IMG/VR virus record: IMGVR_UViG_3300002461_000235 | Span: 1 to 58,169 of that record | Direction: 5' to 3' (one strand) | DNA length: 58,169 nucleotides | From: a virus | In this document: positions 50,690 to 50,829 of the stretch, one piece after another | Layout: every line of letters begins with the position of its first letter | How positions within the stretch are numbered: position 1 is the first letter of the stretch | The notes under the pieces: generated by a model | Seen by the model: only the letters and a program-made list of their open reading frames with translations | Told to the model about the DNA's origin: nothing | Databases searched by the model: none | Made by a program: the position numbers and the translations under genes

Positions 50690-50829
50690 GGGGCCGTAGT
50701 GGAATTGGTAGACACGCTATCTGAAACTTAAGGTGCTGTTGCAACAGTCTTAAGGAAATGATAGAGAAACGGCTGATTAGTTGTTGCAACTGCTAATTGG
50801 TTATGGAGGTTCGACCCCTTCCGGCCCCA
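50690..50829 (+). ncRNA. 140-nt tRNA-like RNA: canonical acceptor, Leu-type D arm and T arm; the anticodon loop is replaced by a 48-nt rod and the variable arm is 28 nt
   Basis: Acceptor GGGGCCG/CGGCCCC; D arm GTGGAATTGGTAGACAC; T arm GGAGG-TTCGACC-CCTTC; stem CTATC/GATAG encloses 38 nt. Both long arms end in G-TTGCAA-C. No CCA is encoded. Confidence 0.6.

Follow-up and report, generated by a model that had tools for sequence, protein, structure and literature searches.

An oversized tRNA-Leu-like element without an anticodon arm in a 58-kb phage genome, and a phage-enriched class built on the same frame

We describe an RNA-like element of a viral genome, IMG/VR record IMGVR_UViG_3300002461_000235 (58,169 nucleotides (nt), hereafter the window; all position numbers refer to the whole of it). 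The element, at 50690-50829, folds into a cloverleaf with the acceptor stem, D arm and T arm of a leucine transfer RNA (tRNA-Leu), and it cannot decode, neither as written nor after one excision. It is missing from four sister phages, and sequence and predicted fold place it in a class of oversized elements, widespread, enriched in phages and essentially undescribed, in which a constant tRNA-Leu frame surrounds a variable central region, which we call the cargo. With somewhat more confidence than doubt, we read it as a small RNA of tRNA-Leu descent that does not decode, its frame being processed as a tRNA and its arms serving as the effector.

A leucine tRNA frame that cannot decode

The Rfam tRNA model (RF00005) covers 50690-50829 on the + strand from end to end (model positions 1-71) with 36.1 bits against a gathering threshold of 29, at the cost of a 78-nt insertion in the alignment. 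ARAGORN, run on the window, called three ordinary tRNAs and did not call the element. The minimum-free-energy fold of the element is a cloverleaf of -47.3 kcal/mol (z = -2.5; 5 of 200 shuffles folded equally well). An earlier reading of the letters without database searches, the sequence-only reading, had described an acceptor stem, a Leu-type D arm, a T arm, a rod where the anticodon loop should be and a 3' end lacking CCA, and had named Infernal and ARAGORN as checks; Rfam and the fold recover every one of these parts where it had placed them (Table 1). It had also proposed a variable-arm hairpin of about 28 nt with a palindromic tip, of which the hairpin and its tip stand while the length proves slightly greater. 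This arm stops two nucleotides (AU) short of the T stem, and U48 is kept.

Among the marks of a tRNA-Leu, the element has a 7-base-pair (bp) acceptor stem, a D arm with G18G19, a T arm with UUCRA, and U8. All identity nucleotides of leucyl-tRNA synthetase (LeuRS), namely A73, U8-A14, A15-U48, G18-U55 and G19-C56, are in its sequence. Its variable region, 40 nt with a 13-pair stem, falls outside the ordinary criterion for a variable arm, and the discriminator A50829 is followed by CUUU, so that CCA is not encoded. G·U pairs account for 7 of the 44 pairs in the fold. The reverse strand of the whole element folds at only -33.8 kcal/mol, and the arm at the variable position reaches -10.0 kcal/mol on the + strand vs -2.2 for its reverse complement. 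The G·U pairs and the strand-asymmetric folding thus argue that the arms are + strand RNA structures and not mere DNA palindromes.

We sought a 5-bp stem with a 7-nt loop and U33 throughout the element and found none. Neither copy of CUUAAGG has a 5-bp stem beside it, and no 5-mer of the element complements the flanks of this heptamer; the sequence-only reading had likewise found no such stem and concluded that the element was not decodable. We carried this conclusion further by deleting every possible single segment of the central region, which gave 3,655 variants, and none of them (0/3,655) produced a canonical Leu anticodon arm adjoining the D arm, with 5-bp stem, 7-nt loop, U33 and Leu anticodon. 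ARAGORN named 18 deletion variants tRNA-Leu; these need deletions of 44-65 nt, their stems are mismatched, their loops lack U33, and CUUAAGG is used in none of them. Leu made up ~6% of the assigned ARAGORN calls on deletion variants, roughly the Leu share of anticodons. With the stem CUAUC/GAUAG, which occupies the place of the anticodon stem, U33 is absent from every prefix/suffix combination of the enclosed 38 nt. The phage has a normal tRNA-Leu(UAA) elsewhere, at 4261-4345 (ARAGORN).

Several known RNA types were considered for the element and rejected. A tRNA interrupted by a group I intron was set aside because the Rfam search gave no Intron_gpI match even at E <= 10, the additional RNA is shorter than such an intron, and the loop cannot be regained by excision. 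A tRNA spliced at a bulge-helix-bulge motif does not suit a fold with a symmetric 5x5 loop, a 6-bp helix and a 2-nt bulge in place of 3-4-3, and excision there fails to rebuild a tRNA. A removable insert of the type seen in Lak phages was rejected because no removal yields a typable anticodon in the element, whereas it does yield one in L079, L277, L070 and L063 (class members described below). There was neither an ARAGORN call nor an Rfam match for a transfer-messenger RNA (tmRNA); a YrlA or Y RNA-like identity was dropped for want of an Rfam match and because the ends of the element form an acceptor stem; and T4 rnaC/rnaD were rejected as its family, since rnaC has no Leu D arm and its topology is different. 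The element also contains a 12-codon mini open reading frame (ORF), MIEKRLISCCNC, at 50758-50796 with AAGGA upstream; as it sits in helices, we judged this reading frame and its Shine-Dalgarno-like sequence to be probably due to chance.

A class with a constant frame and exchangeable cargo

We scanned viral contigs with a pattern consisting of a Leu-type D arm and a T loop 77-107 nt downstream, a spacing beyond that of a normal tRNA-Leu and short of that to a neighbouring tRNA. Viral loci number at least 120, and all class counts given here are among the matches listed. Ninety-nine elements (84 unique) among the 120 viral matches listed close as single cloverleaves, closure meaning that the heptamer preceding the D arm pairs with the one following the T arm (mostly 7/7; ~1.3% by chance). 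These cloverleaves measure 113-170 nt, with a central insert of 60-120 nt. The same scan of 185,579 species-representative genomes gave ~7 genuine cases among 120 matches listed, the remaining closures in cellular genomes being tandem or truncated tRNA-Leu duplications. The filter that admits the 99 viral elements also admits the element of the window. It shares its GUG/CAC D stem with 9 of the 84 unique members, while its T loop, UUCGACC, is unseen in the others listed; a complete scan for this D-stem variant yielded 55 matches, of which 35 close. The statement of the sequence-only reading that the element fits no RNA class therefore has to be given up, in view of this phage-enriched set and of the Lak precedent. 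We found no description of the class in the literature, the Lak phage note excepted, and no nucleotide relatives of two class representatives among GenBank phages.

The acceptor stems covary: the 84 unique members carry 51 distinct acceptor 5' strands, and 584 of 588 acceptor cells are paired. At positions that the pattern does not force, U8 is present in 84/84 members, U48 in 83, G9 in 82 and A73 in 66. The near-invariant positions match the LeuRS identity set given above; LeuRS needs A73 and the tertiary core for charging and can dispense with the anticodon arm (PMC2377443). An anticodon-type hairpin is found in 12/84 members, vs 5.8 ± 2.3 by chance, with a Leu anticodon in 4.

The interior is what varies. 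The central regions of the 99 elements fall into 66 unrelated clusters, and a single frame, AGUCAGG, holds 14 unrelated cargos. L029 (2943-3088) and L075 (9522-9648) are 96% identical over ~400 nt on either side and in both frame halves, and enclose unrelated cargos of 95 and 76 nt; L027 (7074-7223) and L035 (4099-4252) likewise have unrelated cargos between flanks that are 82% identical. From these alignments, cargo is exchanged in place, bounded exactly by the frame, between near-identical phages. Recurring cargo families in distant contigs show compensatory changes; between L069 and L197, for instance, 10 compensated pairs are spread over acceptor, T stem and cargo, and the closing helix is fully replaced. 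A permissive Rfam scan of the cargos at 19 loci found the tRNA frame only. Class members lie on the same strand as their neighbours, which are unremarkable early, replication or regulatory genes. The cargo of our element is a singleton among the 66 clusters, which does not exclude class membership, since most cargos are singletons. No match to the 5' half of its frame, and hence no donor, was found in viral contigs, and a pattern of twin GTTGCAAC plus T loop returned six matches, all protein-coding repeats. An antisense or guide role was considered and rejected: elsewhere in the genome, on either strand, the cargo finds matches of 11-12 nt at most, as is typical of shuffles.

A subset of the class (L079 and relatives, L277, L295, L093, L063 and L070) keeps a covarying anticodon stem and a normal Leu variable arm. 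CCA is often encoded in these members, and once the insert is removed the residual loop nucleotides would rebuild CUUAAAA or CUCAAAA. The insert is structured and lies in or beside the anticodon loop; in L093 and L295 it is cloverleaf-like, with ARAGORN calling a nested tRNA in L093, and in L079 and L277 it is a helix with an ACCA end. These members may represent a phage tRNA intron of a new type, akin to the "enigmatic introns" of Lak phages, of which our literature search found no later explanation. The majority of the class, and the element of the window with it, has no recoverable anticodon arm.

The two long arms of the element end alike, with the 9-mer UGUUGCAAC common to the apexes of the rod and of the variable-position arm. 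In the window GTTGCAAC occurs exactly twice, both times within the element and 45 bp apart, so it is not the common dispersed motif whose count the sequence-only reading had asked for. In cofolding, either arm gains -16.1 kcal/mol from intermolecular pairing, vs -5.3 ± 3.2 and -6.1 ± 3.6 for structure-preserving shuffles, which reached the observed value in 3/200 and 0/200 cases. The class median is -10.5, and the UUCCAA loop mutant suggested by the earlier reading brings the predicted gain down to -5.7 kcal/mol. Its idea of self-pairing survives this thermodynamic test, and the element may self-associate through its apexes, the calculation being one of thermodynamics and silent on kinetics. 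Two perfect, identical 8-nt palindromes occur in the element of the window only, among the 84 members listed; dimerisation through palindromes was rejected as a feature of the class, an 8-nt palindrome being present in 17/84, about as expected by chance.

Ordinary tRNAs lie near 28 of the 99 elements, on the same strand and with the same type of 3' trailer. We rejected the C-W-A trailer as a special signal because ordinary tRNAs of the same contigs carry it as well. Odd RNAs also often stand beside oversized elements: a permuted tmRNA in L054 (3650-3884, next to 3915-4063) and a DUF2693-FD RNA in L037 (576-626, next to 705-850). Oversized tRNA matches with non-Leu D arms in L010 (1339-1458, next to 1192-1327), L023 (10880-12695) and L066 (2498-2885) show that the phenomenon is not confined to Leu frames.

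Insertion site and the upstream RNA

The window is a complete tailed-phage genome with genes for terminase, portal, major head protein, DNA polymerase, helicase and primase-helicase. Its bases 1-94 are identical to 58076-58169, which was first noticed through the 12-mer CTTAAGGAAATG at 1 and 58076 (which supplies the genome's first gene with its ribosome-binding site and start); from these identical ends we take it to be complete, circularly closed or terminally redundant, at ~58,075 bp. GenBank holds no close relative of the window, and the locus of the element has no nucleotide relative among GenBank phages. A search with the primase gene retrieved six related viral contigs, and a metagenome scan with the conserved flank added two distinct sisters, L257/L259 and L260.

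Four distinct sister phages (L005, L001, L257/L259 and L260) read CAAGGTAGCACTTTAATTT uninterrupted. The sequence-only reading would have been refuted by an ordinary tRNA-Leu at this locus in related genomes, with the present copy as a decayed version; the sisters show an empty site instead. In L005 and L001, GCTCAGGATGCATAGAGGAGCTACCTTG and a loop are followed by CAAGGTAGCAC-TTTAATTTTT in one piece, where the window has 144 nt after CAAGGTAGCAC. The insertion comprises the tRNA-like unit and at most 4 nt more, and a direct repeat, CACT, at 50684-50687 and 50828-50831 leaves its boundaries ambiguous by 4 nt. In the primase the window and L005 are sisters at 89% identity, with L001 outside both at 75-78%, and this branching order together with the empty sites makes a single gain in the lineage of the window the parsimonious reading. 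As judged from these alignments, the element is a recent, precise insertion in this phage lineage.

The insertion lies at the 3' end of a conserved non-coding RNA, between its terminator hairpin and its U-tract, so that the same AC-UUUAAUUUUU now comes after the GC-rich acceptor stem. This upstream RNA has a long-range 10-bp helix (CCUCUAUGCA, 50492-50501, with UGCAUAGAGG, 50628-50637) and a terminator-like stem (50639-50647 with 50676-50684) that closes a variable loop, and it matches no Rfam family. Homologs are found in L005 (14880-15078), L001 (14895-15078), L259 (~1240-1450) and L260 (~680-830). Their interior and terminator loop are wholly different in each phage, the loop of L260 having a T-arm-like hairpin. 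In its constant frame and variable interior the upstream RNA resembles the tRNA-like class.

A candidate sigma-70-like promoter would, we infer, drive the upstream RNA and the tRNA-like element together. An inverted repeat, ATTGCAAG (50422-29) and CTTGCAAT (50450-57), brackets its -35; the spacer that holds this repeat, 50342-50475, is not homologous to sister phage L005. TTGCAA occurs in 4 copies and CTTAAG in 3 within 450 nt (50422-50457 and 50727-50790), vs 0.17 and 0.15 expected, a clustering that may keep a DNA-level role for these hexamers alive.

Elsewhere in these genomes, complete, high-scoring tRNA genes lie in frame in the linker of the primase-helicase gene: in the window (46848-46923, within the ORF 45945-48269), L001 (10916-11066), L002 (10904-10979), L003 (4214-4291) and L004 (7989-8064). 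They are of the Met type in the window (65 bits), L002 and L004, Met plus Gln in L001, and Tyr in L003; the linkers of L005 and L006 are without a tRNA. The primase-helicase ORF stays open across the tRNAs in the five relatives translated, with tRNA-Met read as ...VAQRSEPIAHNGLVAGSNPA... Such a sense-orientation tRNA nested in coding sequence is unusual, and it varies among the sister phages.

Table 1. Positions of the tRNA-like element, of features around it in the window, and of the intron-like class members in their own contigs
Feature	Position	Strand	Basis or remark
Whole tRNA-like element	50690-50829	+	140 nt including discriminator A50829; Rfam and fold
Acceptor stem, GGGGCCG with CGGCCCC	50690-50696 with 50822-50828	+	7/7 Watson-Crick pairs
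Leu-type D arm, GUGGAAUUGGUAGACAC	50699-50715	+	A14, A15, G18, G19; U8 and A9 precede; 3-bp D stem
Rod at anticodon-arm position	50717-50764	+	Fold; without anticodon loop
Rod base stem, CUAUC/GAUAG	50717-50721 with 50760-50764	+	Occupies the place of the anticodon stem
Rod 5x5 internal loop, UGAAA/GAAAU	Between CUAUC/GAUAG and the CUUAAG helix	+	Purine-rich; fold
Rod helix, CUUAAG/CUUAAG	50727-50732 with 50749-50754	+	Fold
Rod apical hairpin	50735-50748	+	Apex GUUGCAAC at 50738-50745
Variable-position arm	50771-50802	+	13 pairs including 5 G·U; GUUGCAAC at the apex, 50783-50790
T arm, GGAGG-UUCGACC-CCUUC	50805-50821	+	Rfam and fold
Trailer, CUUUAAUUUUU	50830-50840	+	No CCA; equals the U-tract directly after the upstream terminator hairpin in sister phages
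Insertion relative to sister phages	50687-50830	+	144 nt; alignments with L005, L001, L257/L259, L260
Conserved upstream non-coding RNA	50487-50686	+	~200 nt; constant ends, variable interior
Candidate sigma-70-like promoter, TTAAGA, 17 nt, TATACT	50435-50463	+	Consensus match only
Intron-like member L079	1327-1459	-	
Intron-like member L268			
Intron-like member L278			
Intron-like member L289			
Intron-like member L277	7383-7516		
Intron-like member L295	1697-1845		
Intron-like member L093	1617-1769		
Intron-like member L063	3275-3403	-	
Intron-like member L070	4435-4570		

Proposed function, rival explanations and known systems

Our explanation of the element as a non-decoding small RNA derived from tRNA-Leu can be put as a sequence of steps. 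The parts that are kept (the acceptor stem, the elbow of D and T arms, U8, U48 and A73) are those that give a tRNA its L-shape and that its processing enzymes, and likewise LeuRS, read; two long helical arms take the place of the anticodon and variable arms. The element would be co-transcribed with the conserved early upstream RNA from the promoter-like site at ~50435-50463. Ribonuclease P (RNase P) would cut 5' of G50690, a cut that would also finish the upstream RNA at its 3' end; the element itself would be trimmed after A50829, receive CCA and possibly be leucylated. Co-transcription and release by RNase P are suggested by the place of the insertion, between terminator hairpin and U-tract. 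The frame would confer precise ends and stability, and the arms would be the working part, presenting the same self-complementary apex twice to a shared ligand or for intermolecular pairing. Across the class, a constant tRNA-Leu frame carries hypervariable cargo that recombination can swap.

A number of observations count against this explanation. The class is heterogeneous, and some of its members look like true interrupted tRNA-Leu genes. The three canonical tRNAs of the window all encode CCA and the element does not, and it has A9 where the class consensus is G9. Because the gain is recent, the intact frame could in this phage be a mark of youth rather than of selection. Recognition by LeuRS may suffer from the very long arm at the variable position, as enlargement of the variable arm lowered LeuRS charging (PMC2377443). 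An exact-core search of viral contigs found no homologue with the cargo of the element in which its two arms could be compared for covariation. No complementarity of the cargo within the genome exceeds shuffle level, and among 850 neighbouring ORFs around the 99 elements no protein family occurs in more than 10 loci as a candidate partner.

A bolder version, which we offer only tentatively, would make the tRNA-Leu frame the natural scaffold cassette of phages for host RNase P, 3'-end enzymes and perhaps LeuRS, the two halves of the frame acting as recombination handles by which hypervariable effector RNAs are swapped in early regions during phage-host conflict. In the member of the window the self-complementary tips would then drive assembly of dimers or multimers, and the intron-like members would represent a related, undescribed form of tRNA interruption and restoration.

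Among the rivals, the one that survives best, and that we still hold to be unlikely, takes the element for a neutral relic, a tRNA-Leu that arrived by illegitimate recombination, had its anticodon and variable arms wrecked by palindromic expansions, is of no consequence whether transcribed or silent, and will decay. It draws on the confinement of the element to a single lineage, which four sister phages do not share, on the want of a cargo homologue in the viral contigs searched, on the rejection by ARAGORN, and on the missing CCA in a phage whose real tRNAs encode it. Against it, the scaffold is complete, with the acceptor stem (7/7), U8, A14, A15-U48, G18G19, a canonical T loop and A73 all in place; both arms are long, near-perfect, strand-specific helices with no sign of erosion; and about a hundred analogues hold perfect covarying frames around diverse cargos, unlike pseudogenes.

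We see a slim chance that the element is a processing module acting in cis, in which the RNase P cut defines the 3' end of the upstream RNA, or the acceptor stem replaces the terminator stem, and the excised piece is a by-product; mascRNA serves MALAT1 as a 3'-end module of this sort. The insertion exactly between terminator stem and U-tract, with the acceptor stem set before the same AC-UUUAAUUUUU, and the promoter-like site upstream of the small RNA speak for such a module. Yet a plain hairpin terminator serves this RNA well in the sister phages, a processing signal would have no need of two elaborate arms that share an apex, and most class members do not lie behind an RNA of this kind.

Still harder to sustain is a role at the DNA level, in which the two copies of GTTGCAAC and CTTAAG would be sites for a dimeric DNA-binding protein, for example a promoter regulator, and the tRNA fold would be incidental. 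An alternative of this sort had been raised by the sequence-only reading; it is disfavoured for the arms, given their 7 G·U pairs and the far better folding of the + strand, and it retains something for the palindromic hexamers, which cluster at the upstream promoter too, including in ATTGCAAG/CTTGCAAT around the -35. A small putative helix-turn-helix-like ORF lies just upstream (50167-50337), its DNA-binding nature judged by eye from the sequence. The clustering is nevertheless partly automatic, as palindromes in inverted repeats are counted twice, and an operator leaves the tRNA frame and the class context unexplained. Least likely of all for this element is a functional tRNA-Leu(UAA) interrupted by one or two introns that are removed, which can point to the two copies of CUUAAGG (a good Leu(UAA) anticodon-loop sequence), to the covarying anticodon stems, normal variable arms and CUUAAAA-rebuilding loops of L079, L277, L063 and L070, and to the Lak megaphages (PMC6784885), but has against it the deletion series, the missing U33 with the stem CUAUC/GAUAG and the missing 5-mer complement to the flanks of CUUAAGG, a 40-nt variable region far outside the tRNA-Leu range, the lack of a group I intron match in Rfam, and the normal tRNA-Leu(UAA) that the phage already has.

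Discussion of phage tRNA genes usually grants them two roles only, that of decoder and that of decoy for anticodon nucleases. If the element and its class are non-decoding small RNAs in a tRNA-Leu frame, a large and overlooked population of phage RNAs keeps only the processing and charging half of tRNA-Leu and ferries unrelated, rapidly exchanged structured RNAs. The "enigmatic" oversized tRNAs of metagenomic phages would be explained, and a new annotation category would be called for, as ARAGORN misses such elements and Rfam gives a weak tRNA. The hypervariable early regions, in which anti-defence functions are often located, would hold in this class a reservoir of small effector RNAs, and for the element in particular the twin self-complementary loops predict RNA self-association.

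The nearest precedent lies in the Lak megaphage tRNAs with "enigmatic introns" (Devoto et al. 2019, PMC6784885), which are oversized through an unexplained insert. Lak inserts show presence/absence polymorphism in related phages, and one may encode a tRNA (PMC6784885); a nested-tRNA-like insert is also found in class members L093 and L295. The Lak inserts were interpreted as introns that can be removed from otherwise typable tRNAs (Thr, Tyr). The element, by contrast, offers no anticodon arm to recover; it has two expanded arms and resides in a 58-kb phage, not a megaphage. The pattern of constant frame and swappable cargo, and the bias to Leu frames, are not described for Lak. With canonical type-II tRNA-Leu the element shares the acceptor stem, Leu D arm, A15-U48, T arm and A73, but not the anticodon loop or CCA; the arm at the anticodon position is ~21 base-pair equivalents long, and the variable arm has 13 pairs where 3-7 are usual in tRNA-Leu.

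Group I introns in the tRNA-Leu(UAA) of cyanobacteria and plastids span at least ~200 nt and have a conserved catalytic core. Such interrupted tRNAs resemble the element in their Leu frame and in having extra RNA in the anticodon region, whereas the extra RNA of the element is 31-38 nt in one arm and its excision cannot rebuild the loop. Species 1 RNA of phage T4 (rnaC), a stable RNA of the T4 tRNA cluster of unknown function that is presumably matured by tRNA enzymes, resembles the element in being phage-encoded, in its size of ~139-140 nt, and in its canonical T arm and acceptor-like helix. It lacks the Leu D arm, however, and fails the Rfam tRNA model (best match tRNA-Sec, 17.5 bits, E = 0.76); what it has in addition lies in a 5' extension and not in internal arms, and there is no sequence similarity. 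The tRNA-like domains of bacterial and phage YrlA and of tmRNA are, like the element, non-decoding mimics of the acceptor/T/D part; unlike it, YrlA has both its RNA ends in a Ro-binding stem and not an acceptor stem, and tmRNA is marked by a tag reading frame, by pseudoknots and by alanine identity.

Similar in principle are the tRNA-shaped modules of MALAT1 mascRNA, the tRNA-miRNA units of murine gammaherpesvirus 68 and the Ponchon-Dardel scaffold, in which RNase P, RNase Z and the CCA-adding enzyme are drawn to a module that gives the attached or embedded RNA defined ends and stability. These modules are eukaryotic, viral-eukaryotic or artificial, are not Leu-framed and form no natural cargo-swapping family, in contrast to the class described here. 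The engineered scaffold, like the class, carries its cargo in place of the anticodon arm, and if our explanation is right, the phage elements would be natural counterparts of this tRNA-scaffold trick of RNA engineering.

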